A stretch of 60,886 nt of DNA, counting the filler, from Phoronis ovalis (lineage: Eukaryota), in the NCBI GenBank assembly GCA_028565635.1. It is 5 parts of 5 records of this genome, joined end to end, with 100 filler letters (N's around TTAATTAATTAA, not from the genome) between each part and the next. Parts side by side here need not be neighbours in the genome. Positions count along the whole stretch, not along the records: positions 25,374 to 32,634 come from JAOXYB010000012.1; 4 more parts are not named here. The stretch is one strand, 5' to 3'. The notes under the pieces are model-generated. The model was not told the origin of the DNA and made no database searches. It worked only from the letters and a program-made list of their open reading frames with translations. A program made the translations under genes and the position numbers. Positions 1 through 47,600 of the stretch are shown piece after piece. Within the stretch, counting starts at the first letter, position 1; each line of letters starts with the position of its first letter.

Positions 1-1830
1 TTTGATGTGAACCTGTGAACACCGAGAAATGCTCTTTGAGCTCTATTTTGTACTGATTGTGGTTTAACATATTTTTTTGATACATGTACGTTTTGCACTG
101 AAGCAAATTACCGAAGCTACGTTGATGGTCTGCCAAATGGGAAAACTACAAAGTAAACTGGTTCCCTGTCGAACTTATCATTATCCGAAACACAGGTAAA
201 TTACCGGAATACAGACTGCACGATTTTACTGGAATTGGGTGTTTTTTAGGCAGGTTAGTCTTTCCATAGTATTTTTTTATATATATAGCCTAAGACTATA
301 TAAAAGCTGATACCCTTATACAATAGGCTAGATATCTGTGTTAAAACCCACGATACTTGCATGACAAAAAACGCGTGATTTTAAGAGCTGAAGTGCGAGG
401 CGTACTTTCTTTTTATCAGTCTGAACTGTTGTAAGAAGCTGATATTCTCTTTCTGTTCGCCATTTCGTGTGTTTGTCATTAACCGCAGGAGAACTGCTAT
501 TGTAACTGCCATCTGTAAGTTATGGCAGCCTTCCTGTGACAGGGATTTACGTGGTTTTATTTCTTCAAGTATATTCCAAGGGCGTAGTACAATGTAAGTT
601 GAAAAGAAGTTTGAAACTGTTTGTAATCATTGTTGGGAGTCGATATATATCTTTCTTAACATTTAGAATGCTATGTTCATTTGGATCATGTTATGTTACT
701 TTGGTCTTATATTCTTTCATGTCAGATTTCAGCATTTCCAATCCACATGTGTTCATGTATAAATCATTCCTGTTTCCATACTTAGCTGACTAAAATTATC
801 TAAAAGCTTGTGGCTACCGTCTACAAAAGTAATAGTCCTTAATAGTTCTGCCAAGTGATATCTTTCTTTTATGGACTTATCTGCTCCTAAATACTTAACC
901 ATATTAGTTGGAGTTTGTACGAGCTCTATACCCGCTGTACTCAGCCTGCCCGGTCTTCCTAGAGGAGTTTTACACGCCCAGGGCATTGCTCCGTCTAAAC
1001 AGAACCCATTAATAGTTACATAGTCAAAAAACCAGTCGCCGTTCTCTGAATCGAAATCATTTAAACTTTGTACACCCACTGCAGGCAATGGTGTCTCGCC
1101 TAGGTTTAGCACAAATAGGTTTAACAAATTAGTTAGATTCCGAAAGTACTGTTTATCATGCTTTTCATCTTCGACAAGAATCATGAATTCTAAATCAGAA
1201 TACGGAGTCATTTCTTCTCGAGCTAGAGAACCCAAGCCAACTATGACATTTTTTTGCGGAGCTGGACCAAGGATTACGATAACACTTTTTAAAAATGTTT
1301 CTAATAAATTGCTTCATTCCTTTAGCTATATCATGACATAAGGCTCTTGTATTTTCAGTTATTCTTTTTTCTTGAAGGAGCCGTATATTATCTGCGTCAA
1401 CTATTTTATATATCCGCTTTCCTTCTCGCCATGCTGTTTCAAGTTTCTTAGTGATTCTTAGACGAAAGTGATTAGTATCCGTCTTAAATGTATCACTGGA
1501 AGCCAAAGGAGTTGACATTTTTGCTACCTATGAGATTTAAAAAATCAGTATCATTATGTTTCAAGGTTCATTTTATACCACGTTTCTTCGCGTGTGTGAT
1601 GGGTCGATTTTTTGCGGATTTAAAGAGTGCAGACGCTTTAACAAAGAAACTTGATGCTACATTCATTGTGTCTGATTTTTGTTTAATTTTTTTACAAGCA
1701 AGCCCTCCGATTATAATGTTTTCTTTCAAAATGTCTGCTTCAGTATCTAAGACAGTGTTGCAACCTTTCGCAGCTAGTTCCAATTGTGGGCCCACAGATA
1801 TGAATGTATATTGCGTTCAACAGTTTTAAA
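1..1830 (-). pseudogene. GlnD/DUF294-like (Pol-beta superfamily) nucleotidyltransferase gene, disrupted by frameshifts and stops; runs off the window start
   Basis: Stitching frames gives ...ILGPAPQKNVIVGLGSLAREEMTPYSDLEFMIL (hG-S-x9-D-h-E NTase motif), then GETPLP, GFCLDG..PWACKTPLGR, and below 753 NVKKDIYRLP and AVTIAVLLRL..NGEQKE (helical substrate-binding region). Frameshifts near 1560, 1283, 760 and 575, plus in-frame stops. Boundaries approximate. Confidence 0.75.
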
Positions 1831-1844
1831 TGGATAAGTGTCAT

Positions 1845-2190
1845 TAATACACAGTATCATTAAAAATTCATCTGATGCACAGCGTCTTCAAAAAGATGTC
1901 GACAGACTGGCAACTTAGGGTTAATCTCGAAAAGTGTGAAGCCCTAACTATCACACACAGTTATCACTATTACTAGCTACTGCACTGACTAACTACAATA
2001 ACCACGACCACACTCTAAAGAATGTTACCTCTGCAGATATTTGGATGCACATTTTACAAGAACCTTTCATGTAACGAACATATATCTCACTTGTCCAAGA
2101 AAGCCAACGACTCTGGAATTCTTGAAGAGAAATATTCACTCCTGCAGCACTGCAGCTAAAAGTCAAGCTTACACTGCTCTATGGAGTACT
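1845..2190 (+). mobile_element. Decayed CR1/L2-group LINE fragment (RT C-terminal region)
   Basis: Frame-hopping translation IKNSSDAQRLQKDVDRLA..NLEKCEALTIT..TLKNVTSA..HISHLSKKAN..GILKRNIHSCSTAAKSQAYTAL..EY is typical of the post-RT region of CR1-group LINEs. Confidence 0.75.
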
Positions 2191-3517
2191 TTTGTTTCGG
2201 AAGCGTTTGCTTAGCTTTATAAAAAACTATTGCATGTTATTGTGTTGTAGCACAATGTTTGATGTTTGCTGGCAGCCAAAATATAAATATCATGCATCAA
2301 AATATTTAAGACATTTAACAATTTATCCCTAAAACATTTTAAAAATATTTTTAGTGCACATTTATATGTTATGGTTGAAAAAAATGTTCTTCTTACTTCC
2401 AGTATTAAACGTGTTTCCTTTGAGATAAGTATGCTACAATATTTAGACAACAGAAGGAAAATAGGAGTTCTAATACGAAGCGAAATATTTCACCATACAG
2501 CTGATAGTTCTCGTTTGAATGTAGTATACATCCTTCTTACAAAAATAAATATTATGAGTATCTGCTTACGATAGATAAATGCAAACATTACTTGATATAT
2601 ATTCAATAGTCTGTCACTAAAACATTCAAACATTCCCCAATTCAGAAAGCTTCGTCAGTCGTTCTCGCTTTATTATTATAAAAACAAACTTCTCAGTGTC
2701 AAGATATCCAACATTATATTCTGCAGTTCGTTTGCTGTAATTGCAGATATATCGATAAACTGAAGTAACAAAAAACTAAAAACATAGTCATGTAAAGTGT
2801 AACTTATTTTACCCCGAATCCCATCGTAGTTACCTTAAGTAGTGGATACAACAGATGATTACTTTAGAATTTTGGAAAATGATACACTCTCTCGTTACTT
2901 TTACATACATGAAGTATAAATCCAACTAAATATTAAAGGAAGAAATTTATAGTACAACTAATACACCACAGGCACGATGTTCATGTACAAAACAATAACA
3001 TTTAGTAGGCATCATATCAGAAATAACACACACGTACACTGCAATGCAAGTTAATGTAAAACTGTCAAACGTTTACATGTAGTGTTAACATGACTAATTT
3101 CGAGCCAAGACACTTATAGCAAAAAAAACATCGAACGAAAGCGTATTTACAACTCGTTTAAATTGAAACAATTTGTCCAGTGATTTGAAACCGAATACTT
3201 GACATTTAATAAATCCAAGGCAGCACTGGAGGGTTATATAAGATTCGGGGTGTTAATTATTCCAGAAACATTGATGTATTCGTATCTTCAGCATTCTCAA
3301 AATCGATAGAAAAAAGGCTTAAGTTCTTTTCAGAATGAAAAACAGTTCGACTAAACAAATTCAGCCATTCCTTATTTGTGTTGCAAGTTTAACTGTACTC
3401 CGAGAATTAAGTATTATGTATTTTTTAATTAATATTCAGTTAATATCACTTATTTCTCTGTAGTAAGCATTCCATAATTCATGTTGATGTTTGGTTTGCA
3501 TGAATACTCTATACTTA

Positions 3518-6227
3518 TTAGTCTAGTTCGAATTCAACAATATCTTCAGTCTTTTTATCATTAGGCGCTTCATCATCCTCCTCAACGTCAGCGACACCTA
3601 TGGTTTCCACAGCTATATTTTCTTCTGCAATAAGTTCAAGATGACTATTGCGTATGTGAGGAGTATATTCTTCTGCGACACCTGACATTATATGTTCTTC
3701 GCACTTGAAAATCAAGGGACGCTGAAGGGAGGATGCAAAATGGGATGCAAGTTTTACCGACTTGCCATCACTGAGTATGTGCAGTTGTTCATTCATGTGT
3801 TTATTAGTGTTTCTTAGAATCGATTCCAAGCTTTCACCTTTATTTTTGTATTTCTTGAAATTTTTTACAAAATGTTTAATAAATGGTGTCCCATCTGGAT
3901 CACGGTATGACAGACATCCAGGCAATGTGGAGTAAGCTATTATAAAATCTTCTTCTGCAATTGGTAATAAAACTTCTGCAATAGCTACTGGAGCTTCTGA
4001 TGGCTTTGAGTCAGTGGATGCAGGTGGTTTTAGAATTTCTACAATGGGAAACAAAACAGTTTACTATTATCCAGTCTGAATAAATCCATCCATTAGTGTT
4101 TCGTACCTTCTCAACCAACGTTTAGGTTTAACCTTAGTCAACTGTCGAGATATTTCTTCAATTTAACAGGAGCAAAATCTATACGTCATTAAAATTCTGA
4201 TCCGATCTAAATAAGCTATTCTCTTTTTGTGATTGGCCTATTTTACTAGCTACCCGCTTAGTCCACTGTTATACCCATTATTGTAAGCTGCAATTTGATT
4301 GGCGTCTAGACTTTCGCGGATAATTTATACATAAATAAAGTGATTATCATTCTTCTGCTTTTCCATATAATAAACAGAAATTGACTGTGATTAAGCTCTG
4401 ACGTTGGTTGAGAAGGCACAGAATACTAACGGATATATTTATTTAGACTGACTATTAACCAAAAAATGCCCCTTAAGTTTACAGTTTAAACTACTTCCAC
4501 AACTTTCACCGCAGACAACTTCGTGAAATGCAATGACAATGAGAGATTGTATATACATATAGGTGATCAGTATATTTCAGTGATAATTTATGGGTCCCTG
4601 TCACAGGTGCTCGCGAGTAGTCATAAAAGGAGTGTTCAACGAGACAAACTGACACATCACACAATTATGGGGGAACCTGGGCCTCGGAAAGACTCGGGTG
4701 GGGATGATGATCCTGGTGGAGCAACCATGGTTTGGTTCTTCCCTCGAAATTAATTGAACATGCGTCAAAAATTCCTGTATGTAGTTACTAGTTAATGTAG
4801 TCCTCGCTTTGTAAATGTAGTATTTCGACACTTTCTGTTACAATGATAGGTTCACAATTATTATTCTATTTTGCAAAATTTAAAAATTGTACTTAAAATC
4901 TTATATCAAATTAACTTCTTCTGCGCAGATACCAAAAAACGGTATCAACTGTAAAATTTCATGTAATGGAAGTGTGATTTTCAAAAGATTTTTTTTTTAA
5001 ATTTGAAATTCAAGGACGTTATTCATTTTCGAATAAAGATTTTATAAGGGCATTGTAATTTCAGCAGAGTATTTTATTGTTTAAAATGTTTCTCGTCAAA
5101 TAAGCATCTTTCAAATATTCAGTTGTAAAAAAGAATGTCGGCCCTATTTCATTGATAATGTTTGCATTTCAGTACCTAATATTTTTCGATGACTTAGTAC
5201 TTGAAAGATAAGACAGAGATATGAAGTGTTTTAGTCCCACTCGTATTTTTTTAAAACTAGGTTTTAGGTTGCTAGTATAAAGCTTGCTTCAAAATGTACC
5301 TCTTGAGCGTTTTCCTTGACAAGACACAATAAGGAAAACCTTTGGTTTACCACTCAGCGTTGGACTGTTATGAGTTGTGAACTTTGATGTCAGTTCGATT
5401 AGTGGCACCAATACTCCATCAACACCGTATATTTGACCACTTATTCCATGACTCATAATACAGCAAATGAAGCAGCTGTATAATGAGTGGTTTTCTTTAC
5501 TGTATGACGTCACGCAGTCTCGTATCTCTGTTGAAGTTAAATCCTCAACGGACTGAACTATAAACCCAGTTTCTTCAAACGCAGTGGCCAAAGTAGCTAA
5601 GAAAAGTTTTTTAAAGGTATCAGAAAAAACAGTAAATGAAAACACAGATAGTAGACACAATAAGGTAATCAGCTACAATCATTTTGAAAAGGTCATCAAT
5701 AAAACAGTTTCTTAATCTCTCTCTGTTAATTCGAAGTAAAAATCCATGTTATCGAATAATTCTTGTTATTAATTTGTACTGTACATGTTTAATTGTAGGT
5801 AGTTACAACTGTAACATTTAATAGAACTACAGTCTTTACCAAACGATTTAAAAAGTAACTGAAAACTGTGCATGCAGAAACCTTAGTTCACTGAAGCAGT
5901 TCAGTTCTTAACAGGTAAGTTTCTTCGAGCAATGTTTGGGAAATTTGCATATTGATTTGGGTTACATGAAATTATTGTAGAAGTGGATGGGAAAAATCAA
6001 CGCTGTCAATATTCCAATAGTAAAAATGTACACACCCTGATCTGCATGAGTTCCTTCTCTGTTATCAACATCTGAGCCTGCCCAACTGAAGTCATAATTA
6101 CTAATGATAAGCGCCACGCCGACTGGTTTAGGGCACATTGGGTATGGAATATTGATTGTTGACACGCTTGTTGAAGATTTATCACTCTTTGGACCACGAT
6201 GATCTCCACCAGAACAAACTGGCCAAT
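3518..6227 (-). CDS. Caspase (peptidase C14A) domain exons, caspase-8-like
   Basis: PYPM..KPVGVALIISN.DF...NREGTHADQ|ATLATAFEETGFIV...CFICCIMSHG...IYGVDG...LSGKPKVFLIVSCQG|...EDFIIAYSTLPGCLSYRDPDGTPFI. Catalytic His (SHG) and Cys are present. Confidence 0.93.
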
Positions 6228-9200
6228 CTATTAAATCATACATAAAACTCCTTCTCACATCATGTCTTTTTTGTTAATTTGTATATAAATATCTGTTACA
6301 GTAACAATTCTTTGTCATATTCATTATAAAATATCATTGCTGTGATTTATTTTGCCTATCTACACAAAATCAACTTAAAAAAACTAAAACAATGTGAATT
6401 GGAATTGATATATAATGCCTACACTACTGAACAATACATTTATCGTCTGGTTATTCTATACATATGACATATCTACACAGTGAATATTAGCCAAAAATCG
6501 GTAGACGCAAGTAAAGATTCCTAGAACCTAGAAAAGTCTAGCTAGACGCTATAAAGCCCTTCCTAGAACCTTACAAAATTGCGGTACCTGGAAATGTAGG
6601 AGCTAGCAAATTGTTGGACCTAGAAGTAATCGTTCAACGCTAAAAATGTTTCATAGGTCCTACAATATTGTAGGCGCTAGAATCGAGCATCGATATAGAT
6701 CAGAGTTCAGTTAGACCGCATACGCAAAGGTTTATGTAGAATTTCCTATGGCGACCTCGGTGTAAAGCGGTTTTTGAATATGTCTTTTAATTTTTTTTAA
6801 CGTATGATTCTTCTGGTTATAATTACATTACGATTGTTAAAGTAGCTTGTTAGTAATAATTATCGTTATTAAATAATATATATTAGATTGGACAAATTCC
6901 ACTTATTATATAATTCTTAATTGTTAATCACTAGGTGGCTTAGAATCGTTCTGGTCGATGTCAGAAGTGTAGTGTTTGGGCTTTGTATGTGCCTGCAGGA
7001 TGTACGTTTCAATCTTTTAAAAAAATTCCCGAACCTTAATTTTTCATACCTGTCTTAAATGCATTTTCCAAGAAATACACCCTGTAAACGAATGGTTTTT
7101 CAAAGATACTTTCCAAATTTGAAACAAATGAAGGTAATTCTTTTATAATTGGAATATTGACATTATGAAAATTTCTCAACAGCACTTGTTTTTGCATTTT
7201 TTGTGAAATGTGGCATTTTTAAAAATTTTAAGCATGAACAAATGTTATAATATTATATTCTGATATTTAGTATTTTTGATTATTTAATTTGTTTTAGAGA
7301 AGTGAACTAGAACTAAGAAATATTTTAGTTTTGCTTGAAATTTTTAAAATATCAAATTTTGCATCCAAGGCTGCCATATGCGGTTCTACTAAATTGTGAG
7401 ATGTTTTTGGAATTATATTATTTACAGCAAGTAGATTAAAAGTAAGTTAAAAGCAGTATCACACCACTCAGAAACGACACTGCCACTTCCTAACAGACAT
7501 TTGAATTATGTGAACATTTATTTGAAACAAAACGTATTGAAAAGAATGAAAGAATAACTTTCTGAATAACACTCAAATCACTAAACGTGTACGTGATATT
7601 TACCTTCACAATAATAAACTAAGAAAAAATACTTATTTCACCAAAAAATTATTCAAAACTAAAATAATGAAATTTAGCACTCAACTTAATATTATAACAC
7701 ACTTAAATGGGCAGTAAAGCTGTGTTTAATATTCCAAAATATTGAAATCTCATTAGCACTTGATATCAAGAGGGATAAAAGGATAGCACCGTAAAGTTAA
7801 ATAGATGACACGTATAAACCCGGGGGTACTCAAAGTTTTTTGACTACCGGGATGTGCCGCCAAACCCAATCCAACATTTTAGCTCGTGGTAGCAAACCCA
7901 ATCCAATTTTTTTTAAATTTTAGGGTAGCAATCCAAATTTTGTGAAGTATAAGGGTAACAATCCAAAATTTCAAAATATCTGAGTATAGCAATACATTTT
8001 TACGCAAACTGACTGATACAAACCAAATCCCAAAATTTATTTTTGGATACAAATCTAAAATTAATCCAAATTATTTACTGTAAGCAGTGGGTAGCAATCT
8101 AAATTTGTGAATATCTTTACAGTAGCAATCCAAAAAAATACAGTAAGAAGTATACAATCCAAATCTAAAATTTTAAGATGGAACCTAAATCTATATGCTT
8201 AGTTTACTTCCAATCTGACATAACCTCTTACATGCATTAAACAAGTACTGGCAACAATAGTAAACAAGTCACTTACCTGTTTTTTTACGTACATTTCGGA
8301 TTACTTCGCTTATTTCAGGGTTATTTTGAAGCAGTCTAGTCACCTCATTTAAAGTGCAATCAGTTTCATAAACTAAACATTTAACTGTTCCCAGTTGGCC
8401 TTGCAATACTGCCAAGTCAAGGGCATTACAATATACACTGTTGCGTAAACACCTCTTTTCGACGTTACAACTCGGAACTGTAATCAAATATCTAACAATT
8501 TCAACGTGACCAATTAACGCAGCTATCATTAAAGCAGTATACCCAATTTCGTTTGTTTTATTGACATCGCATCGAGGATGTGTAGCTAAAAGCATAACAA
8601 TCTTGAGATGGTCATTCATGGCAGCCATGTGAAGACCAGTTTTACCATCATTATTTCCTTTGTTTACGTCACAGCCAAATTGAGCAGATAAATATTCAAC
8701 AACGTCAAAATGCCCATTTTTTGCAGCTATTGTTAGTGCAGTACTGCCAAATTTCTTACTTTGTTTGTTTATGTCACAGCCGGGAAGTCCAATTAAATAT
8801 TTGACAATGTCCATATGTCCATTTTGTGCAGCGAGTACAAGAGCAGTGCTGCCATAGTTGATATCGCATTCAGGTAACTTTGCTAAGTATTTTACCACCT
8901 CAATTTCATTTTTATAAGCTGCTAGGTTAATAGGAGTGTCACCGTCAGTATCTGCGATGTTGATATCACATTTCGGATTTGTTGCTAGGCTTTCAACGAC
9001 ATCAGTATTTCCATTGTATGCTGCCAGTGCCAAGGGACACCAGCCAGCCTTGTTTACTTCATTGATATCACATGACGGTATTGATGTTAGATATTTTGTG
9101 ACTCGAACATGGTCCTTTCTTGATGAGCTCATTAATGCGGTGTTACCATAATCGTCAACCTCATTGACATTAAATCCAATTCTGAGCAAACATTTGACAG

Positions 9201-12200
9201 TGTGAAGATGGCCATAGCTTGCAGCCTCTACAAGAGCACTTTGCTGTTTTGTCAGTATTTTTTTAACATTGCATTCTGAAGCTCTGGCTAAATATCTGAC
9301 AACATCAACATGACCTTTTTGTGCAGCCGCAAAAAAGGCTGCACTGATCGCTTCATCAGTAACCTTGGAATTTTTAGCCAGGTACTTGACAACTTCAACA
9401 TGTCCCCTTTTTGATGCCAATGGTAGTGAAATCTGACCACAATTATTTGTTTTTATCGTGTGACATGTACTGTTTGAAGTTATATATTTTAAAATGTCTA
9501 AATTGCCGTTGTAGGCTGCGAGCATGAGAGCCGAGTCACCATCATTATTCGTTTTGTTCATATCACAGGCGGACACGCTTCCCAAGTATTCAACAAGGTT
9601 ACTGTGGCCGTTCTTTGCCGCCAGTATAAATGCAGTATTGCCTTTGTTGTCGACGTGGTTAACATCACCTTGTAATGAAACTAAACATCTGACAACATCT
9701 GTATGTCCATTACTGGCAGCCATTAAGAGTGCAGTTTGACCATATTCATTTTCTTTATTGATTTCACTGTTAGAAAGCTCAGACAACAATCTCACGATAT
9801 CACCATGACCCTTTTGTGCTGCTAACGACAAAGCGGTGTCACCGTTATTGTTTATTATACTCGTAACACATTTCAGTTTTTTTGATAGAAAATGTACAAT
9901 TTGGTAGTGACCATTTTGTGCAGCTAACATTATAGCAGAGTTACCAGATGTTACGTAATTGTCTTTGTTCCATCTTAACATGTTGCGAGGGGAGAATAGG
10001 GTAAAAAAGTTCGGTTTGTCTGTTAGGTTAATGTCACATTCAGGTAAACTGGTTAATATTTCAACAACGTTCATATGCCCATTCTGTGCAGCAAGTAGTA
10101 GGGCACTTTTACGAACTTTATTTGAATGATTGACATCATACTTGTCAAGCAGGAATTCAACAATCCCTCCGTGTCCATTCTTTGCTGCTAGTATTAAGGC
10201 GTTATTGCCATCATAGTTTTCTACCAAGTTATCATAGGAGTGCCTTTCAGTTAGATAGCGCACGATATCAAGATGACCTGTCTGCGAGGCTTCCATAAGA
10301 GCGTTGTTTCCATTAGCGTGGCTTTGTTTGTAAATGTCACCACTGCATACTGAACATAAGTGTTTCACTATGTCTATAAATCCAACATGTGCTGCAAGTA
10401 ACAGCGGACATTTACCAGTTATAGTTGCTTTCTTGAAGTCACAGTCTGCTATTTCAGTTATACTTTTCACAACATTCGCATTGCCACTTTGAATAGCCAG
10501 AAAGAGCGGAGTATTACCGTCGTTATCTTCTTTATTAATATCGCACAATGGGTTTGCAGCGAGATTTTTTACGATAGTACAATGCCCACAGCACGCCGCA
10601 ATGGACAGAGCATCGTTGATTTGATTGGCTTCGTATTCTCCGCTTGCAGTTAGATGATTTACTTCATCATTGTCTCCTTTGAGTACAGCCAATAAAAGGG
10701 AAGTGTCATAGTTACATGCTTGAGGGAATTCACATGTTTTATATTTAGTTACTGAAAGGAGATATTTCATTACATTCACATGGTTCTTGTTTGCTGCCAA
10801 ATAGAGAGCTACATGGATATTCTTGGTTTGTTGATCTACGTTGAAATTATGCAGTTGTGTTAGGCACTTAACGACGTCTGTATGACCCTTTCGACTAGCC
10901 AATAAAGTAGCACTTTCGCCATTAATGTCAACTTTATTAACGTCACAACCAGAGCATGCAGCTAAATAACTTACTACTTTAGTTTGTCCATTTTTTGCAG
11001 CCATCATTAATGCAGATCTGCCAAGTTTATCTTCCTTGTCGATGTCACAACCAGGTATTGCAGTGAGATGTCTGACGGTACCAACATGCCCATTACTAGC
11101 TGCCAGCATAAGAGCAGTGATACCCTCATATTTACAACAAGTATTAGCAACATGAAATAATTTGCAATCAGAAACTGCATTGATGTCAGCACCATAGTCA
11201 ACCAAAATTTCCACTATAGCACAATCTCCATTAGACGCTGCTATCATTAATATAGTTTGGTTAAGTTCATAGTCCCAAACTTCATAATAACATTTTGTGA
11301 TTGTTAATAACATCTTTACATCCTTAATGTTTTTCTCTTTAACGGCTTTTAGCAACCTTGACCTTGCTAAAGTAGGGTATCCTGACTTAATACATTTACA
11401 GATGGGATAATCATCACTTTCGGCAACGAAATTCTTTATCTGAGCTATAAGCGTAAACAAACATGTGTTAAAGCAAACACGAAATAGAATGGCGTTTTCT
11501 GTAGATAGTAAGTTTTTGCATATCTGTAAAATTCAGAATCGTATGCTGTTTGTAACATTGAAAAATGTTGAATCATTTATTATCATCAGTGTGAGTGATG
11601 TAATACCTAGAAAAATTACTAATTTCATAATTTTTTTAATGTGCGTGTTATAAGCATTCGAAATAGCTCCGCATGGACGAATACAATTGAATCGCACTGT
11701 TCATATTATATCTTGCGTAGTGAACAGAATTCAAATTTTAATTTATAAAAATAAAAAATATGAAATATTTGCCATAAAAATGTTTTATTTTGAATGTTTC
11801 CTAAATACATTATTTTGCCATTGTCAAGGTATCAAAACAGTTGGCACATGTTTGCGCTTTGTTTTTGCGCGTGTGAAAGCTTACTGGCACCCGTTTCTGG
11901 ATTTGCTGGTGTCTGTTTCAAAGGGTACTGTGAGAATAGTTACGTGGTATATATTTATACATATTAGTGATGTAAATTCGATTTCGTTACGTGACAGAAC
12001 ATTAACAATAAACTGTGTTATAGAGAAGTAAAAATGACTCACCAATTCTGCCTTGTACATTTTTTCTTCTTTTCATTTCTGTCATCTTCTTGTTTTGCAG
12101 TTCATCTTGAAATTCTGGCATGAACCAAGGCAGAGACATGTACTGTAGATAGGTCGGTATGCTACAAACTGTTTCAACCACAGTAGCAAATGTTTCACAG

Positions 12201-24464: not shown

Positions 24465-24505
24465 AAAAAAAACATGGAACGCTTCACGAATTTGCGTGTC
24501 TGCGC
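24465..24505 (-). pseudogene. U6 snRNA 3' fragment ending at GCGCA (5' two-thirds replaced by foreign sequence)
   Basis: Minus strand GCGCA-(AGGAT missing)-GACACGCAAATTCGTGAAGCGTTCCATGTTTTTTTT matches the U6 3' end. Confidence 0.9.
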
Positions 24506-25273: not shown

Positions 25274-25991
25274 NNNNNNNNNNNNNNNNNNNNNNNNNNN
25301 NNNNNNNNNNNNNNNNNTTAATTAATTAANNNNNNNNNNNNNNNNNNNNNNNNNNNNNNNNNNNNNNNNNNNNGGGGATATGAATAAGTTTGCTGTGACA
25401 ATGTATTTTGTGCGTAATTCATATGACAAACAAATAATACTTCGAAGAATAGGATTTTTAAAGACAGATTATTACAATTTCATTTGTTCCTATTTTGTGA
25501 TATAGGCACTACTTGTACCAAGTCAAAAAACTACAGATTTCCCATTGTTTGTGCTTCACATGTAACTACACTACCGTAAACGTTTTACGCATAACAGGAT
25601 TTTACATCATTTTTAAATTTCTGCAGTCAAAATTAAGTTACCATTTAGTTAACGAATCTTTTACTTTGTTACCATAGTTTATATCCTGTTTTATGTAGAG
25701 ATTAAGGAGTTAACGTATTTAGTTAACGAATCTTTTACTTTGTTAACGTAGCTCCTACAACCTATAAACCTTGAATCCATAACTCATAGTGGAAAAACGT
25801 CCATTGTTTTATTGTAAGTTTAACTTTAAATTTGAACTGTTTTCGTCTTATAGATTTTAGCTTTAAGCATATAGCCTAGCTTTATTCGTCGCAATTCTAC
25901 AAGCTAGCAGTAGCAAGCCTGGTATTCGCGCGGATATGCGTGTAAGCGAGTAAGGTTAAACGTGTTTATGGTGATTTTTTTATTGTAGATA

Positions 25992-28111
25992 ATGGCGTGT
26001 TCCAAAATTCTTAAAAAACGTGATATAAAGGGTCATTTCACATGGAGATTTCTCAAAAATTTGGACCAAAAATATCATGAGGAATTGCAAGGTTTCAATT
26101 TTTATTGTCATTTATGCATTTATGGTCGATCCACCGTCTTGATCGGCGAGTGAACCCAAATATGGTTTTGTAAATTGAACTGACGTATTTGCCGCGAGCT
26201 TGCGTAATTTTGTAAACTGAAAAAAGCAGGGATTGTTCAGGTTCATGTAGGAATCATGACGATGCCTCATGCAGTTAAAAGTTTATTTATCGTGTAACCT
26301 AATTAGTTCTTCTCGGAGGCAACTTAGGTTTGCTTGAGAAGCATTGCAAATTTTTGGAATAAAACTGGCATGTGCATAAATTCGATCTTATGAAATGTTA
26401 ACAGTCTTAACATGATTACGGAGCTGTTGGGTATTCAATATTCAGTATTAAGGTGTATAACAATTAAACGTATTTGCATCATTTCTCTATTTTATTTCTC
26501 AGACTGTCTTAAAAGAAATTTCGAAGATGAGCCGCATGCCCGCCGTCACGCCATAATGAACCTGCTTGGCTTTGTTCACTGTTGTTTACACGACACGTCG
26601 AAAGGCATTAAGCTATTTCAACAAGTTATGCACGAAGACGAAACCGATTCGAATGCCGTCTGCAATCTTGTTCATGCGTATGACGGCATAAGTATGCAGA
26701 AAGAAAAAGAAAAAAATGAACAATTGTTTAAGAGCATTATGGCAAAACCAGACATCGAAGTGAACATTGTCTTGGCTCGGGCTCTAATCGAAGAAGTTGT
26801 AGCCGCTTGCTTCACTGATCAGCATAAGAAGCAAGCTGATTTTGAATTCGCAAAAAATATGTTTGATGAAGGAATGGAACTTGGTAATAAATACAGAATA
26901 AAGACAGACGAATTATTACATTGGAAATTTGGACTAGCCTTTCATTTGAGTCGTCTAGATAATCGAGTCCGCCTGCATGGCGATATCACTAATAATAAAT
27001 ATTGCAGAGACAGTATGAAACTGTTCTACGAGGTCACATTGTTTGCGCAAGAATTTGATAACATGACACAAATGGGTGTAACTGAACTGTGTGGGAAAGC
27101 ATGGGCATTCTTGGGCGTAATATTAAACTTACACAAGAATGAGTTTGCAAACCTAAATTCGGTTTTTGTTGGATGTCGGAAAGAACACGCAGAGTTTGAC
27201 GGTAACCGATGCCTGGATAAAGCGCTAGACTTCGCACCCAAATGTGCTTGTGTTCTTAGACATGTTTGCCATAGGTTCCACGAATTAAAACAATACCAGA
27301 TGGCACTGCACTGAACTATGGATTAAGGGCAATACAAGTTCAACAAACGGGGTATGCTTATTATCTAGTAGGGAAAGTATATCTATCAATGCATCAAGAT
27401 GGGACTGCAGATCTAAACTGCAAGGACAACGATTGGCTCGATCTTGCTATATGGTACTTTGAGAAAACTATCTCTAGACACTTTAAACTTTCTTATGCTA
27501 TCTGTAATCTAGCTACGGCCTATCTTCTGAAAGGGGATGAATTAGCAGCTTTAGAGAAGTTTAACATGGCAGCAGAGGTTACGGGAGGTTCAGGTGATTA
27601 CCATTTATATCTGCAGTGGGCACAGTATTTAGATGAGCTTGGGGAACACGATCGCGCAAACAGTAAACGAGAACATGCACAAAAAATTATAAGTCATGCT
27701 GTACCAGCAAAATATGATTTTGTTGCGTTTTATTCTTCAAAGGACACTGATGTTCCAGAAATTATTGAATCAATTGAACAACGACTCAGAATAAAAGGAT
27801 ACATGTTTGTACGTGACTGTTTGCCCGGTACCAAAATCCCTGATGAGACGGAAAATCTTACTGATAACAATTCATGTTTTCTCCTATTTGTCAGTAAGAA
27901 TTCTGTTGCCAGTATTCCATTCCAGAATGAAGTTACCTTTGTTACAAAAGAAAGTCAAAGCAATTCGCAAATCATTCCTATTTTACTCGATTTGGAAGTG
28001 GAACACTTGCCGTATGCTCTTATCAACCTGGCTAGCATGCACGCTATTAAATACAACAGCAGATATGTTTGGGATAAATTAAGTGCAGTTTTCAAAGCAA
28101 GCAGTGTGTAA
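25992..28111 (+). pseudogene. IFIT/TTC22-like TPR protein fused to a C-terminal TIR domain; one frameshift
   Basis: Exon 1 25992-26091 (MACSKILKKRDIKGHFTWRFL...) joins exon 2 at 26503 through a phase-1 GT-AG intron (RHAIMNLLGFVH...NAVCNLVHAY). TPR-like helices follow, then TIR motifs KYDFVAFYSSKD, RDCLPG, LLFVSKN, QNEV, IIPILL. A GCACT duplication at 27303-27312 shifts the frame. Confidence 0.82.
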
Positions 28112-29070
28112 CACATGCGGAAAACTGAAGCTTACCGATCCGTGCCACAAATTGTCCTTTTGTTTTCAACGGCTAAATNNNNNNNNNNNNNNNNNNNNNN
28201 NNNNNNNNNNNNNNNNNNNNNNNNNNNNNNNNNNNNNNNNNNNNNNNNNNNNNNNNNNNNNNNNNNNNNNNNNNNNNNTTACTATATTCTTGTCAAAATT
28301 TGCGTTCACTTACCGCTGTGATAAGCCATGTTAATCACATATTATCGCCCTTATTCAATGAAAAAGTCAGCTAATTTTGTTAATAGGCAAATTATGATAT
28401 AAGGAAATAAAGATGATTGTTATCGCCATTTTGTGAATTTCTCACATTAGTACGTGACGTCACCCCGGTGGCCCATTCTGAATGCATCTTTGGTGGTCCA
28501 AACTCTAGGTGCTGCTTCTTTAACTTTATCTGTAATTGTAGCTAACTTTCTTTTAGTATATGCTGAAGCACTTGTTTTACATCTAAGATTTTACAACGTC
28601 GCCCCCTTGTGATGGAATGCATAATTTGGAGAGCAGTAAAATAAGAAATTACAACATATTTTTGGTTTATTTTTTTTTACTCGAAATAAGAATGACTATA
28701 TCACCTCATCTTATGATTTAACTTATAGAAATAGATTTTCTACTTAAAAGATGTTCAAAAATTCAGTTTGTATCCTTAAGTGATGTTCAGTTAGATAAAG
28801 ATTCTTACATTCTGGGGTTTTCATTTTAAGATAATCTTACATGAAGTAAGCGGAAGCATATACATTTTACTTTTTTCTGAAAGTGTACGGAAGCGCTGAA
28901 ATATCAGTTAAGGAATATGCCCGAATTTTACCATCATCAAAAAAAGAGATTTTCTTGTGCGCTGTAGAAAAGCAGAAGTACTGTTTCTAATGTTAATAGT
29001 GTAACATTATTCAAAACTTTCCTTATGTTGTTATAGTGATTCTAACATTTCTTCTTAACTTAATGTCCTG

Positions 29071-29111
29071 TATATTACCTGTATATTACCTGTATATTAC
29101 CTGTATATTAC
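29071..29111. repeat. Short 11-bp tandem repeat (TGTATATTACC) x ~4
   Basis: Direct reading. Confidence 0.85.
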
Positions 29112-29510
29112 ATTTATATGTCATTTTAAACTGTAAATTATATGTTATACTAAAAGTCATGCAGCAACTGTACTTGAAAACTATCGCTACTTTAGAACAA
29201 TTCATCCCAGTTTTCATTAACTGTAATAGATAAACTTTTCAAGAAAGTCAAGAATTACTGTCACTGACATCTAAATGATCCCCGGATAACATCTAAATCA
29301 TGTTTCAAATGTTTAGAATCAAAACTTTAATCATTCTGACCTCAAAATGACATCATGACCTTTTATAAGTATGCAAGTATTAAGTATTGCAAACCACTGC
29401 AGTATTTATANNNNNNNNNNNNNNNNNNNNNNNNNNNNNNNNNNNNNNNNNNNNNNNNNNNNNNNNNNNNNNNNNNNNNNNNNNNNNNNNNNNNNNNNNN
29501 NNNNNNNNNN

Positions 29511-32500
29511 TAAAATGCCCCTCACGGCGTGCGTCTCCAACAGCCTCTGACAACTAAGTCCAGCTCCTAGCCTGCTCGTGTGGCTTAGATATAAGCCCGG
29601 CGGAACTGCTACTACTGATAGGAGAAGGGGTGAAGGCGTGTTACCTGGCGCCTGAAAACTAGTGCTTTGGGCAGATGGGGCTCATCAGTCTGGGAAGACA
29701 GCTCATCTAAGAGAAGGAAAACTCTGATTTCAAACCTCCGCTGCCTTGCGGCCATACTTATTCATAGGAAATGCTTCGGGATTCAACCCTGAGGAAAATA
29801 CGGAGTCGGAGTCCCCAAGGCAGTCCGAGGCTGTATACAGCAACGTTCTGGCAACTCCTGCGACCGCACTAGAACCATGTGTATCGGCGCACCTTTCCAG
29901 TGGAACATTCCAGCGACGTGGAGGGGAGGGTCTGCTGCATGGGTAACAGCTTGCCCTCCATACTTAATTACCCAGGCTTTGTGCTCTGGAGAGGACACTC
30001 CAGCTTCGCTTTGCAGCATCGACAAAACACGGGAAGTAGCAGTCTACCGGTTATAAGTCTGTATACTCAATTGGCGTAGAGTCAGACGCCAGGGGCTGCT
30101 TCCGACGGTGGGAGAGGTCATCGCATCTCACTGGGTAGCTACCGCCCGCCTTAAGCTGGGCAGCCCCCAGCCTTTAAGGTGCTGCTCCGCCACGGTCTGT
30201 TAGCCTCACTGGGTGCGTGGGGCTTAGGGTGAAAACCGACAAGCGGATCGACAACTGTGCACCAAGCAACAAAAAAATGAAAACTCCCGCCCTGAAATTG
30301 GGCACATGGAACGTAAGGACAATGACACCAGGCTTTTCAGACGACCTGCATGAAATAAATGATGCTCGCAAGACAGCTGTTATCGACAGAGAACTGAGCA
30401 GACTGCAGATGGACATCGTCACCCTTCAAGAAACCACGCTCCCAGAAACAGGATCTGTGAGGGAGAGAGACTTCGCTCTGTTCTGGCAGGGCAAACCCTC
30501 AGACGAGGTCAGAGAACACGGCGTGGGATTCGCAGTTAGAAACAGCTTATTGGGGTCCATAAACCCACCAACAGAGCGAATCCTGTCTCTCCGACTCCAA
30601 ACATCCTCAGGTCCAGTCAGTCTAATCAGTGCCTACGCACCAACTTTGGTATCCAAAGCAGAAGCAAAAGATAAGTTTTATGACGACCTCAGTGCTACTA
30701 TAAGGAGAATTCCCGACAAAGAACTACTGTTTATCGCCGGCGATTTCAATGCCAGAGTGGGTGTCGATCACAACTCCTGGCCCACCTGCTTGGGTCAGTT
30801 TGGCACTGGGAAAATAAACGAGAATGGCCAGCGCCTGCTAGAGCTCTGCTGTCAGCATGGGTTGTGCGTCAGCAACACCTTCTTCAACACGAAGCCTCAG
30901 CACCGAGTCTCCTGGAGACACCCGCGATCCAAACAGCTCGACCTGATCCTCACCAGACGTGCCAACCTTTCCAGCATCAAGATCACTCGCCGCTACCAGA
31001 GCGCCGATTGTGACACTGACCACTCTTTGGTGTGCAGCAATGTGAAGCTCCGTGCGAAGAGACTGCACCGTACGAGAAAGGAGGGCAGACCTCGCATCGA
31101 CACCAGCAAAACACGCGATCAAGGAAAAGTGGAGGAGTTTGCGCTTATATTGGAGGATTCTCTCCCTGGTCCACCCACTGCAAATGCCCAAGAACGATGG
31201 GAACACTTCAGAGATGTTGACTACAATGCCGCCATGTCCACCTTTGGCAAAAATACCAGCAAGTCAGCTGATTGGTTCGTAGCCCACTCAGAAGAAATTA
31301 CACCAGTCATCGAGGCCAAGAGAAATGCCTTGATAGCATACAAAACCAATCCCAGTGAGCAGAACCTCCAGGTTCTCCGTGCTGCTCGCAGTAAAGTCCA
31401 GCAGTGTGCCAGGCAATGCGCCAACGACTATTGGCTTCAGCTCTGCTCCCAGATTCAGATCGCAGCTGACACAGGCAACATCAAGGTGATGTATGACGGC
31501 ATCAAGCAGGCATTGGGCCCAACGCAAAAGAATACTGCCCCTTTGAAATCAGCTACAGGGGAAGTGATTCAAGACAGAGAACAACAGATGGAGCGCTGGG
31601 TAGAACGCTACACTGAGCTATATGCAAGGGAAAATGTAGTCACAGAAGATGCTCTGAATGCCATAGAGTGTCTGCCAGAGCTGGAGGAGCTTGACAGAGA
31701 AGCAACCATAGACAAACTCAGCGAAGCCCTGGACTCTCTTGCCTCTGGCAAGGCACCAGGAAAAGACGGTATTCCCGCCAAAGTACTGAAGTGCTGCAAA
31801 GAGACACTCATCACCAAGTTGCATGGAATCCTCTGCCTCTGTTGTAGTGAAGGCGAAGTACCACAAGACATGAGGGATGCTAACGTCGTCACACTGTGCA
31901 AAAACAAAGGTGACAGAAGCGATTGCAATAATTATCGCGGCATATCCCTCCTCAGCATCATTGGGAAAGTCTTTACACGAGTAGTACTGAAGAGGCTCCA
32001 AGTACTTGCAGAGCATGTCTATCCAGTGCGGTTTCCGTGCCAACAGATCCACTATAGACATGATCTTCTCCCTGAAACAACTTCAGGAGAAATGCAGGGA
32101 GCAAAGGCAGCCACTCTTCGTTGCCTTCACAGACCTCACTAAGGCTTTCGATCTGGTCAGTAGGGATGGCCTCTTCAAGATCCTCCCCAAGATTGGATGT
32201 CCACCCAAACTTCTCAGCTTCATCAGATCCTTCCACGAAGACACGAAAGGCACCGTTGTCTTTGATGGTTCAACATCAGCTGCATTCAACATACGGAGCG
32301 GAGTGAAACAGGGTTGCGTCCTGGCTACCACCTTGTTTGGAATATTCTTTGCTGTGATGCTGAAACACGCATTTGGTCCTGCAACTGAAGGTATCTACCT
32401 CCGAACCAGGTCAGACGGGAAGCTCTTCAACCTCTCCAGACTAAGAGCCAAGACTAAAATCCAGCTGAGGTGCCTGCGTGACTTCCTCTTGCAGACGATG

Positions 32501-32634
32501 CAACAGTAACCGCCCACTCAGCCGAGGACCTACAGCAGCTCATGACTCGCTTCAGCGATGCCTGCCAAGACTTCGGGCTTACCATTAGCTTGAAGAAAAC
32601 ACAAGTCATGGGACAGGATGTTGATTCTCCTCCA
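29511..32634 (+). mobile_element. RTE-clade non-LTR retrotransposon (5' UTR, AP endonuclease, reverse transcriptase), lightly mutated, bounded by gaps
   Basis: LGTWNVRT, LQET, GVGFAV, SAYAPT, GDFNARVG, DTDH (APE); GKAPGKDGIP, NYRGISLL, QCGFR, DLTKAFD, GVKQGCVL and FADD (RT). Frameshifts at ~32025 and ~32490. GC-rich ~700-nt 5' UTR containing gagaaggaaaactctgatttcaaacc. Confidence 0.95.
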
Positions 32635-44600: not shown

Positions 44601-47600
44601 AATAATTGATTTCAATAGAATGTACACTAAGTTATTAGATTAACAACCACAATAGTATAATTAAATTCACATTAAATAGACAATTAAAAAACTTTTTTAT
44701 TATAAAATGACTGAGTCTAGTATCATTAATAACCTTCATAACAGGACTCTATAGACCAGAAATGTGCTAGTATGACCACTTTTAGGCTACTAAATAAATC
44801 CTACACAGCAGCACCTTGACACTTTATATCAGCTAAATACTCACCTTAGAACAATACGCAACAATATGCTGCCACAATTCTTTAGCTTCCTGCTCTTCTG
44901 TTTTCCTTAGATCATCAATCAACCGGCTCTTTTGCCTTGTTAAAGTTGGTGCAATGACACCCGAACCAATAGGTTTTTGACACATCTTACACAGGGTGTC
45001 TTTGTTTAAGTTCTTAAATGTACATACTTTGCATTGCCATGAATTAATACTAAGCATAGTTCTGCATAAAGAAGAGTTTAATGATGATACCCTAGCAACA
45101 GGTTGGTGAGATATGCTTGTGCTTGGCAAATTTTCATCAGGAATGGAGGAAATTCTCTTCTTACTGCATATTTCGCATATCGAAGCTTTAGTGTCATTCT
45201 TGTATGTGCAAGCTGAACATTGCCAGCTATAGACATTAATACCAGATGCTGGAACAGTATTAGTAGAGGGGGATTTGGTTAACGGGTTTGAAAATGGTGA
45301 AATTTGAATATCATCCTCAGTAGGGAGACGGACACGTCTCTTTGCCTCACACGCACCGCAAACATGTGCAGTTTTTGGATTTTTTAAAGTACATTTTGAA
45401 CAGATCCATGATTCTGTGCGTTTCAAAGTAGCCGGTAATTTTTTTTCACTATTCAGTTTTGAGCTTCCACATGCAGAACAAGCTACACTTGACAATGGAT
45501 TAAGTAATGTGCATTTTATACATGACCACAAATCTTTTGCATTTTCTGCTTCTAAAACATCACTCTCATCTATTGTTGAAGCAGGTGTAGACTTGCAATC
45601 TGTGTCCGTAGCAGTGGTGGAATCTTCTTGTCCAATGGGAGCTGGGCGCTTTGACACAGATGATTCATCTTGCAAATTTTTCATTTTGCGATTTAAATTG
45701 TCACCAGATGACACTTTAACTATGTTATTCTTTCCAGGATTTACATGTTGTCCATTCATTGTCTCCTCATCTAAATCTAGCAGATTTTTTGTTCGAATGT
45801 TATCACAAGCTTTGCACTGTTCAACACTGATTTCATTTTTCAATGTACACTTGGTGCATGTCCATTCTGAATTGTCTGCACCACCATAATTTGTTCCCAA
45901 GTCACCAGGCCAGGATAAACCACTTAAACTATCTGGGTCTTTTCCCCTTTGTTCTTGCTCACTAATGCTGTTATTGATTTCCTCCTTTGGAATGGGAAAC
46001 ACATCTTCAGAATCTGATATTTCAAGAATTTCATCCTGAGGTAATAAATAATTACATGATATGCATTTAGTTACACCTGAGGGGCTGTACAATGTACATT
46101 TGGGACATTGCTTCTGGGACCTTGTTTGACTACACGACATGCCATCGTCACTATTGGTATGTATAGTAACAGTTTCTTTTAATCTTTCCTCAATGTCATG
46201 ACGTTGCTTCTTTTTTAAAGGAGGGTAAGAAACCAAAGTAGCACCTTTGCCATTATTCTGTTTATCCATTTTGCAATTTTTGCATTGGTCAGTTGAAGGG
46301 GTATTTAAATGTTTGCATATGGTACAATTCCATTCGCAAGTTTCTTCCGTCCTGCTGCTTCCATCATCTTTAGCTGCCTGATGTTTGACAACATGACCAT
46401 TCATTGTTTGACTGTTAGGTCTAAAACATACAAGAATAAGCTGATACTTCGGGAAAACCAATGTAGGATCAACACTGAGAACAGTGTTCTCCATGTATTC
46501 AGAGATAATAAATGAATTTAAACTCATAAATATACAGGAAATAATGTACTTTGCATCCACTAAATGTTAAGGTAAATACCATGAACATCTATGCGCTTGA
46601 AGTGGAAAATACTGCTGAACGATGCAAATTTTAGTTTTCAACTTTAATGCAAGTGCCCATATTTTACCCGGATTAAGAATGTGTAGTACTGTACTTGCTG
46701 GACTTTGGAAACTAATGTATCTAACAGAATCAACCCATTAAACAGTCCATATTGATAAATTATTTCCTCATGACAATTACAATACAAGGGTCAACTATAT
46801 GCATTTGACAAGGAAATAACCAGAGTCTACATTTGTTTTAACTTAATACCTATTTAAAAATAGCAGTAAATGTAACATGCTCACATGCAGAAAAACAGAC
46901 ATTGGTATAATTTTTTATATTCTATTTTTGGTAAGTGTATCTTTGCCTTTTTTCATTTGTATGTGCACATGTAGCCCTAATTTCGGCTTAGTGATCAACC
47001 ATTTCAATTCCTGGATAAAGCCTGAAAGACCAGAAGGCATCTTAAGTCTGACTTTGGCTTAGTGATCAACCCTTTCAATTCCAGAATAAAGGTAGAAAGA
47101 TCAGGAGGCACCTGTAGCCCTTGATCTCAGATTAGCGATTATCTCTTTCAATTTCGGAATAAAGGACCACGAGGCATCTGTAGCCCGATTCCCACTTGGT
47201 GATCAACTCTTTCAATTCTGGAATTAACAGCTGAAGGACCAAGAGACAGTTCTCCATGCAATCACCTCAAGAATTTGTGCCCCATGTCTAATTACAATTG
47301 ATTTATCTTGCCATTTGCTATTAAGCATTTAACTGATAAATTAGTGAATTTATAATCAACACAACTACAAGACATAACACCATCTATGATGTTTGTGTAG
47401 TAACCATGAATTGATCAGGGTAATGATCAACTGCAGTAAATATATATATTTATTTTTTATATATCAACTCATCCTGCATTTAGTACATTTTCTGGCATGC
47501 ACAGCCAGTCAAATGAAGAACACACATAAATGCACTGCAGTGCTACCGGTTTCTGTAGTGACACATATTTTTTGTATGAGATTTGTTCCATGAATAATAA

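Follow-up and report, generated by a model that had tools for sequence, protein, structure and literature searches.

Analysis of a 60,886-nucleotide stretch of Phoronis ovalis DNA (GCA_028565635.1; hereafter the window), which consists of five joined parts whose adjacent members are not necessarily neighbours in the genome, led to a gene at positions 25992–28111, within the part derived from JAOXYB010000012.1 (positions 25,374–32,634), in which an array of tetratricopeptide repeats (TPR) is followed by a C-terminal TIR domain. Taken as a whole, we consider it reasonably probable that this gene joins an IFIT-fold TPR clamp to a Toll-type TIR domain, that it is a divergent member of a TPR+TIR family of which the window holds a dead copy, and that the protein type acts as a sensor signalling by TIR–TIR scaffolding. 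The architecture itself is real and, as judged from structural modelling of a relative, is that of a conserved but uncharacterised invertebrate family with an IFIT fold. No description of an IFIT-like TPR region fused to a TIR domain was found in the full-text literature, a body of text that has most subscription journals and supplements outside its scope.

Gene structure and splicing

The gene lies on the plus strand of animal-type, AT-rich DNA (~35% G+C) with introns, and its two coding exons lead from an ATG at 25992 to a TAA stop at 28109–28111, with a frame break in the second exon that is treated further below (Table 1). The start-codon exon encodes MACSKILKKRDIKGHFTWRFLKNLDQKYHEELQ and one further base and ends at 26091, directly followed by a GT donor (G/GT at 26091/26092). 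The acceptor (..tttctcag/AC at 26502/26503) opens exon 2 at 26503, and the phase-1 join creates a GAC codon (Asp) and continues into the open reading frame (ORF) 26394..27314, in whose translation the TPR stretch NLLGFVHCCLHD...EDETDSNAVCNLVHAY can be read.

Logan contigs of three public runs were compared with the window, namely X1 (organism A, 86% of words), X2 (organism B) and X3 (organism A, from another sample and study); a fourth run, X4, gave no match, and none of the runs listed for this stretch was marked as RNA. A contig of 980 bases from X3 lies on 25987–26089 and 26501–27239 and joins 26089 to 26501 ('skips 411, GT..AG (cut +2)'), so that exactly the predicted intron of 411 bases is removed. 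A second X3 contig spans 27232–28168 and carries the last TPRs and the TIR domain together. The original prediction had proposed a small first exon contributing a GHFTW motif, and this exon was borne out by the ATG at 25992, the motif at 26031–26045 and the X3 splice junction. The predicted succession of TPR repeats and a C-terminal TIR domain was likewise recovered, the latter through Pfam TIR_2 (E 7.8e-10). As both parts lie in one exon and are covered by one X3 contig, separate transcription of the TPR and TIR halves is not indicated.

Collinearity of the window protein with 13 relatives over its full length, together with the position of 24 of 39 listed differences between gene copies at third codon positions, excludes a chance resemblance. 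The read-through protein, with an X at the break, comprises 568 positions, corresponding to an intact protein of ~567 residues, and neither a signal peptide nor a membrane segment was detected in the predicted protein (highest 19-residue Kyte-Doolittle mean 1.59).

Upstream of the start-codon exon, an AG acceptor at 25987–25988 (ttattgtag/ATAATGG) was rated good, and the X3 contig carries 138 letters before 25987 without a match to the adjacent DNA, which together indicate at least one further non-coding 5′ exon. With as many as 3 mismatches allowed, a 30-letter consensus of this loose end had no match in the window; the exon may be hidden under one of the N-masked segments or lie beyond the window's limits. 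Searches with tblastn gave no second copy of the gene in the window, all other matches having E values of 1.7 and above. The possibility of a gene on the minus strand was dismissed, since ORFs of that strand beneath the gene do not exceed 98 amino acids.

With regard to the immediate surroundings, N-masked stretches at 25285–25374 and 28179–28279 flank the gene, and between two N runs lies the 12-mer ttaattaattaa (25318–25329), which resembles an all-frame stop linker and not native sequence.

A TPR+TIR family in hemichordates and echinoderms

When 1.84 billion representatives were searched exhaustively with HMMER, using the window protein's N-terminal half as query, 13 matches were retrieved at E ≤1e-3 (best 2.3e-9), ten of which are TPR proteins; the six of these with a source name all derive from echinoderms or hemichordates, and four are unnamed. 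The other three matches were set aside as unrelated repeat proteins (Ig_7, PKD, low complexity). Two relatives, P0004 from Saccoglossus and P0008 from Ptychodera, carry CH[LF]TW near the N-terminus and TIR_2 above the cut-off at the C-terminus; P0014 also contains TIR_2 above the cut-off, and P0016 and P0012 gave TIR matches below it. P0008 is matched by the read-through protein at E 7.4e-24 in a small database. In a profile search, 12 family proteins of 565–681 residues were obtained at E ≤4e-83 from Ptychodera, Saccoglossus, Apostichopus, Acanthaster, Amphiura, Patiria (2), Diadema and four unnamed sources, and the remaining 12 matches of this search are generic TPR or LRR-TIR proteins. Family members with a named source bear automatic database names only, i.e. 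'uncharacterized' or 'TIR domain-containing'. In a word-index search for longer relatives with the C-terminal half, 0 of 1300 candidates scored.

The window protein and 13 family members were combined in a 14-row alignment, and a quick maximum-likelihood tree was calculated from 21 rows, comprising the window protein, 13 CHxTW proteins and 7 'TTC22-like' proteins. In this tree the window protein is sister to the 13 CHxTW rows (SH-aLRT, an approximate likelihood ratio test, 96), and the seven rows of the sister clade, named 'TTC22-like' by NCBI, stand apart from this joint group. By sequence comparison, the window protein is thus placed as a highly diverged member of a TPR+TIR family whose hemichordate and echinoderm representatives are intact.

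The ambulacrarian CHxTW-TPR-TIR proteins, for example those of Ptychodera (XP_070566814) and Saccoglossus (XP_077868727), display the same architecture and motif order as the window protein at full length, whereas the window copy is frame-broken, is devoid of the ~70–90-residue linker that its relatives possess before the TIR domain, and falls outside the clade of all 13. Echinoderm 'TTC22-like' proteins (S. purpuratus XP_030829284, Patiria XP_038075920) contain a TPR array of similar length, which is matched by the window protein's N-terminal half at E 2.3e-8 to 8.8e-4, and some of them also end in a TIR domain; however, they lack the CHxTW motif and form their own clade.

The TPR region and the IFIT fold

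The original prediction had described the N-terminal part as IFIT/TTC22-like, and this description held at the level of the family profile, of a structural model and of language-model clusters. A profile of 11 relatives matched IFIT5 in the PDB at E 1.6e-11 (profile 4–146 on chain 3–150) and an N-terminal fragment of IFIT1 at E 1.6e-8 (9–124 on 3–124), with only designed consensus TPRs, TIR chains and OGT scoring above IFIT5. The N-terminal 186 residues of the Ptychodera protein matched IFIT5 at E 0.036 and IFIT1 at E 0.037. For the window protein, the clusters nearest to the N-terminal half in language-model features are IFIT2, TTC22, IFIT5 and IFIT1-like (0.95–0.94, 187–196 of 256 features), a proximity that serves as a lead only, since the recognition value of 1992 lies under the mark of 2300.

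An AlphaFold model of the Ptychodera protein reached a predicted local distance difference test score (pLDDT) of 80.3, based on a 15-row alignment that included two pieces of the window protein. In a Foldseek search with this model, IFIT1 or IFIT5 took 11 of the top 12 places (E 4.5e-8 to 1.5e-7), the exception being SPINDLY at rank 7 with a template modelling (TM) score of 0.19. TM scores by target amounted to 0.59–0.67 for IFIT1/IFIT5 monomers, 0.52–0.56 for IFIT1-IFIT3 and IFIT2-IFIT3 complexes, and at most 0.52 for all other listed targets. With VIA-align, the model was superimposed on IFIT5 at Z 27.1 over 383 residues with a root-mean-square deviation (rmsd) of 4.5 (model 18–450 on chain 6–413), on IFIT1 at Z 26.7 and on IFIT2 at Z 20.4; the top 12 of the 50 rows shown are all IFIT5, IFIT1 or IFIT2 with 326–385 aligned residues, and the next rows are Tom70 (Z 18.3) and APPBP2 and LGN (both Z 18.1). 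For repeat proteins, VIA-align values of up to about Z 13 can reflect a common arrangement, and a Z of 27, ~9 units over the next unrelated TPR row, is therefore well past this range.

At the N-terminus, relatives of the window protein carry the motif CH[LF][TSQMN]W, of which C, H and W are conserved at ≥90%, and the window protein reads GHFTW, with the Cys replaced by Gly. In IFITs, CHFTW is described as invariant and as located in a loop between two non-TPR N-terminal helices, according to the available text of PMC11462223.

Vertebrate IFIT1 and IFIT5 (5udi, 5w5h, 4hot, 3zgq) form an all-helical TPR clamp of the same overall shape as the Ptychodera model, with CH[FL]xW at the same N-terminal place as in the family, and the window protein likewise lacks a signal peptide and a membrane segment. 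Differences are nevertheless evident: the clamp of the family is followed by a TIR domain, while solved IFIT chains measure 426–482 residues and IFITs, to our knowledge, carry no TIR; the final ~60 residues of IFIT5, beyond 413, align to nothing in the Ptychodera model; and identity to IFITs is only 17–20%. Moreover, the start-codon exon of the window gene encodes 33 residues including the motif, whereas the first exon of vertebrate IFITs encodes little beyond the ATG, and induction by interferon cannot apply as such in an invertebrate.

Alternatively, the TPR part could be an ordinary interaction scaffold whose likeness to IFITs is generic to long TPR arrays, which would make the protein another invertebrate 'TIR-TPR' adaptor. 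That term is reportedly in use as a class label in an Aplysia paper. It also denotes a class of oyster TIR proteins, as a bare label in a figure legend of the accessible text (PMC4346834), and designed consensus TPR proteins do score above IFIT5 in the family-profile search. In the available text of Liu et al. 2013 (PMC3688568), for which the genomes of sea urchin, acorn worm and amphioxus were searched for IFITs, three acorn-worm candidates are given as the closest BLAST matches (E <1e-6) and none in sea urchin; the matches are attributed to TPR degeneracy, the acorn-worm TPR genes are placed outside the IFIT clade and are not regarded as IFITs, and IFITs are considered to have arisen with interferon in jawed vertebrates. 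The word TIR occurs 0 times in that text. However, the match to IFITs seen here begins at the N-terminus, is collinear and takes in the CHxTW motif, which is not a TPR, at the corresponding position; it extends over ~380 residues at Z 27, with Tom70, APPBP2 and LGN ~9 Z units behind, and the TM scores separate IFIT1/IFIT5 monomers from all other listed targets. We thus regard a generic scaffold as very unlikely, and conclude from the model of the relative that the TPR part of the family has an IFIT fold. The family was filed as IFIT-fold or IFIT-like and not as IFIT, because the tree holds no IFIT or vertebrate TTC22 rows and because Liu et al. 2013 (PMC3688568) put the acorn-worm candidates outside the IFIT clade.

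The TIR domain and its predicted output

The C-terminal domain is recognised by PF13676 (TIR_2) with 39.7 bits against a cut-off of 28, and the score for PF01582 (TIR) stays below its cut-off (13.5 bits, E 0.062; cut-off 21.3). Box 1 (KYDFVAFYS) is found just upstream of the TIR_2 match, Box 2 (RDCLPG) at 27812–27829, and the Trp of Box 3 in YVWDKL near the end, and all three boxes were aligned with the relatives and, through the family profile, with TLR2. Searched against the PDB, the family profile matched TLR2 best (E 3.7e-20), followed by TLR1, TLR6, TLR15/2, TLR10, Hydra TRR-2, TLR3, TIRAP and MyD88, and no SARM1 chain was found among the best 60 of 249 matches. The TIR domain of the Ptychodera model was superimposed on Hydra TRR-2 at Z 17.6 (rmsd 1.6, 32% identical) and on MyD88 at Z 17.6. 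TLR1/2/6/10 and MyD88 TIRs are accordingly the closest sequence matches among those listed; unlike these, the TIR of the family is attached neither to a transmembrane LRR receptor nor to a death domain, and the window's own TIR is too divergent to match any solved TIR by sequence.

The original prediction had drawn attention to a Glu retained at the position that is catalytic in NAD+-cleaving (NADase) TIRs. This residue is indeed present, in PFQNEV (codon 27929–27931): in the 14-row alignment, the Glu of SIPFQNEV aligns with that of SRWCQYEL in the Ptychodera relative, and the family stretch before helix C aligns to NFVKSEWCKYELD of TLR2, whose motif reads SEWCKYEL. The window Glu consequently occupies the E75 position of Toshchakov and Neuwald (PMC7075850). 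According to the available text of that study, more than 70% of all TIRs possess E75, on which NADase activity depends; the residue is retained in >90% within NADase groups and is also >90% conserved in the non-enzymatic TIRs of TLR1/2/6/10; SARM1 is named as the only known NADase among metazoan TIRs, with W71 and E75 binding ligand, and SARM1 orthologs are devoid of RDxxPG and carry another BB-loop motif (PMC7075850).

These points bear on the proposal that the protein is a sensor-effector, in which the clamp would sense foreign RNA and the TIR would cleave NAD+, leading to cell death or a nucleotide signal as with SARM1, plant and bacterial TIRs. SARM1, plant and bacterial NADase TIRs share the E75 Glu with the window protein, and Pfam TIR_2, the model that fits best, is preferred to TIR in the window sequence. 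Bacterial TIRs are often NADases, and bacterial TIR+TPR defence systems are reported in a bioRxiv preprint. Language-model features place the C-terminal half closest to bacterial TIR_2/ThsB-like clusters (0.95, 176–178 of 256 features), with an echinoderm TIR+TPR cluster at 0.93, a proximity that leans towards NAD+ cleavage and speaks against scaffolding. On the other hand, the Glu is kept by non-enzymatic TLR2 and, of the 9 relatives whose TIR is complete, only 4 have it, the others showing G, A, A, I and V. The Trp four residues before it (W71), which is ≥90% conserved in the relatives, is a Pro in the window. The family also retains the TLR-type Box 2 RDxxPG that is missing in SARM1 orthologs (PMC7075850), SARM1 is absent from the best profile matches as noted above, and the window copy is unable to make a TIR at all. 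Bacterial group 6 TIR proteins carry the TIR at the N-terminus with TPRs behind (PMC7075850), an order opposite to that of the window protein, in which the TPRs come first.

Judged by these sequence comparisons, the residue on which the NADase idea is built has no diagnostic value, and of the predicted sensor-effector fusion the union of an IFIT-like TPR region with a TIR domain in one gene stands, while the NADase effector half is not supported. We hence consider the sensor-effector model unlikely and clearly favour a predicted scaffold output by TIR–TIR contacts over NAD+ cleavage.

The frame break and related gene copies

In the window, the reading frame of exon 2 is disrupted by a tandem duplication of five bases, at which ORF 26394..27314 runs into its TGA stop, and an overlapping ORF in another frame (27275..28111) continues to the TAA. 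When one GCACT copy is ignored, ..LKQYQMAL/NYGLRAIQVQQTGYAYYLVGKVYL.. aligns gap-free with ..MKQYGHAMEYFKKSLDMLQSWFAYRHQGRLFL.. of the Ptychodera relative. As it stands, the window copy would be translated for 303 residues only and end short of the last TPRs and of the TIR domain. The original prediction of a fused protein therefore stands for the architecture but not for this copy, which cannot make the fusion, the frame being broken at 27303–27313; this had only been hinted at by the words 'repaired protein'. Neither programmed frameshifting nor a tiny intron was accepted as an explanation of the break, as related copies simply lack the five bases and align gap-free.

Run X1 carries the duplication in a contig that covers 27250–27767 with 0 differences at a depth of 42.8, and contigs without it account for 0 of 42.8. 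Its window-type copy contains in addition an extra A behind 26562 (52.2/52.2 depth), a second frame break that is absent from the window. In the sole covering contig of X2 and of X3, by contrast, the duplication is missing ('5 left out' at 27303) and the frame is restored; both also lack 3 letters at 27407, which is in frame, and no further indels are listed for either. Copies of this type differ from the window by ~5% and occur in the same organism (X3) as well as in a related organism (X2). Since X2 contigs cover parts of the intron, this run is genomic, whereas X3, with no cover over the intron or upstream, behaves like complementary DNA (cDNA). The tally of substitutions is based on 40 of 120 differences listed, one of the 40 being X1's own, and the 39 that separate X2/X3 from the window comprise 20 synonymous and 19 non-synonymous changes with 0 stops and 24 changes at third positions, a pattern which indicates that the sequence evolved as coding until recently, under moderate constraint.

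One may ask whether the break is an assembly artefact and the gene intact in the animal, as the X2 and X3 versions without the five bases and the still coding-like recent substitutions (20 synonymous to 19 non-synonymous) would fit such a view. Yet Logan's own assembly of X1 holds the identical duplication at full depth, its window-type copy shows the further one-base insertion, and the ~5% divergence marks the X2/X3 sequences as other alleles, paralogs or orthologs and not as the window sequence correctly read, which leaves an artefact highly improbable. The window copy is most likely a dead gene, either a pseudogene or a null allele, and a sister copy or allele, ~5% different and intact at the break, exists and is spliced.

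Two further observations were made in X1. Variants of the window-type copy include a deletion of one base at 27751 (120/333 depth) and an insertion of GTTCAG behind intron position 26234 (23/55). Summed depth reaches 115–321 over the TIR region compared with ~50 elsewhere, a hint that this genome contains additional copies with a TIR.

Proposed mechanism and points against it

In the mechanism that we propose, an intact protein would be cytosolic, as suggested by the lack of a signal peptide and of a membrane helix. The TPR clamp would bind a ligand, possibly a nucleic-acid end by analogy with IFIT1 and IFIT5, and ligand binding may drive or permit TIR–TIR assembly with MyD88-type adaptors, so that sensor and adaptor would reside in one chain; NAD+ cleavage would be the less likely output. 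The window copy would yield only an N-terminal fragment of 303 residues without a TIR domain, and most likely nothing useful.

Several observations weigh against this interpretation at its different levels. With respect to family membership, the highest identity of the window protein is 23% over 538 columns (23–28% at most across comparisons), its branch in the quick tree is 2.31 long, so that long-branch effects are possible, and of 105 family-conserved columns 42 are identical in the window protein, 58 similar and 6 gapped. The fold evidence derives from the model of the Ptychodera relative and not from the window protein, whose N-terminal half alone gave no Pfam match and no IFIT match in the PDB (only a designed TPR, E 0.087). 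Its C-terminal half gave no TIR match in the PDB (10 of 11 matches are designed TPRs and one is a radical SAM protein at E 1.4), the TIR stretch alone returned one chance match at E 1.3, and a single-sequence model of the C-terminal half was unusable (pLDDT 40). As for the gene copies, X3 is labelled 'DNA?', which is a guess, and its spliced contig could stem from a retrocopy instead of cDNA; X1 is possibly the source sample of the assembly, in which case it may be no independent witness to the duplication; and an open frame of the X2/X3 copies beyond the break would rest on the 40 of 120 substitutions shown, with no other indels listed.

Further features of the window

Outside the gene, several minus-strand ORFs in succession over 756–14541 carry domains of immune or death type, and these ORFs may represent exons of one or two large ankyrin-caspase genes (Table 1). 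A full-length U6 spliceosomal RNA gene follows, whose 3′ end is, by eye, repeated at ~24470–24500. Positions 18993–20380 are taken up by ~1.4 kb of tandem repeats rich in CA/CG (period 26–52 bases), which give rise to spurious ORFs of ~500 amino acids in all frames. The retrotransposon ORFs of the long interspersed nuclear element (LINE) type are embedded in a G+C-rich island (51% vs ~35% around). For the ORF rich in RanBP2-type zinc fingers, two weak relatives only were obtained among 5.8 billion proteins, and the proteins of this animal seem to be absent from the collections searched.

Table 1 Coordinates of the TPR–TIR gene and of further features in the window.
Feature	Position	Strand	Remarks
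Start-codon exon	25989..26091	+	Coding 25992-26091 = 33 codons + 1 base
GHFTW motif	26031..26045	+	G14-H-F-T-W18, in KGHFTW; counterpart of IFIT CHFTW
Intron	26092..26502	+	411 bases, GT..AG, phase 1
Main coding exon	26503..28111	+	TPR array, then TIR, TAA 28109-28111; frame broken at 27303-27313
IFIT-like TPR region	26503..27709	+	Collinear with residues ~60-450 of the Ptychodera relative
Tandem 5-base duplication GCACT GCACT G	27303..27313	+	Breaks frame; stop TGA 27312-27314
TIR domain (Pfam TIR_2)	27731..28057	+	Residues 153-261 of the 27275..28108 translation
Glu codon of PFQNEV	27929..27931	+	E75 position of TIR domains
DUF294 nucleotidyltransferase-like piece	756-1313	-	E 3.3e-5
Caspase p10-like piece	3521-4060	-	E 4.3e-9
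Caspase p20-like piece	5292-5672	-	E 3.8e-23
Ankyrin-repeat ORFs	8272-11532; 13204-14541	-	1087 aa; 446 aa
U6 spliceosomal RNA gene, full-length	22228-22334	-	Rfam RF00026, 118.2 bits, model 1-105 of 105
LINE-type retrotransposon ORFs	30178-32509	+	Endonuclease/exonuclease/phosphatase domain E 6.3e-9, then reverse-transcriptase-like ORF
RanBP2-type zinc-finger-rich ORF	44836-46566	-	577 aa; Pfam E 8.5e-21

Implications

The fold, profile and motif evidence points to a combination of IFIT clamp and Toll-type TIR that is conserved across hemichordates and echinoderms, which contrasts with the view of Liu et al. 2013, and the existence of this family suggests an origin of IFIT-like sensors before the vertebrates. 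Tentatively, IFIT-fold sensors may predate jawed vertebrates as single-chain clamp-TIR receptors, of which vertebrate IFITs and TTC22 would be TIR-less descendants or sisters, and the window protein, which in the quick tree falls outside all 13 ambulacrarian members, may then belong to a second, older or fast-evolving lineage, with live copies, spliced and in frame at the break, next to dead ones in the population. What makes the window copy itself valuable is that it directs attention to the family and exemplifies variation of the presence/absence type in an immune gene. Should foreign RNA ends be bound by the clamp and a signal be passed on by the TIR domain, the protein would constitute a compact sensor-plus-adaptor joining two innate arms that are separate in vertebrates and, if true, would provide a testable model of the role of IFITs before interferon.

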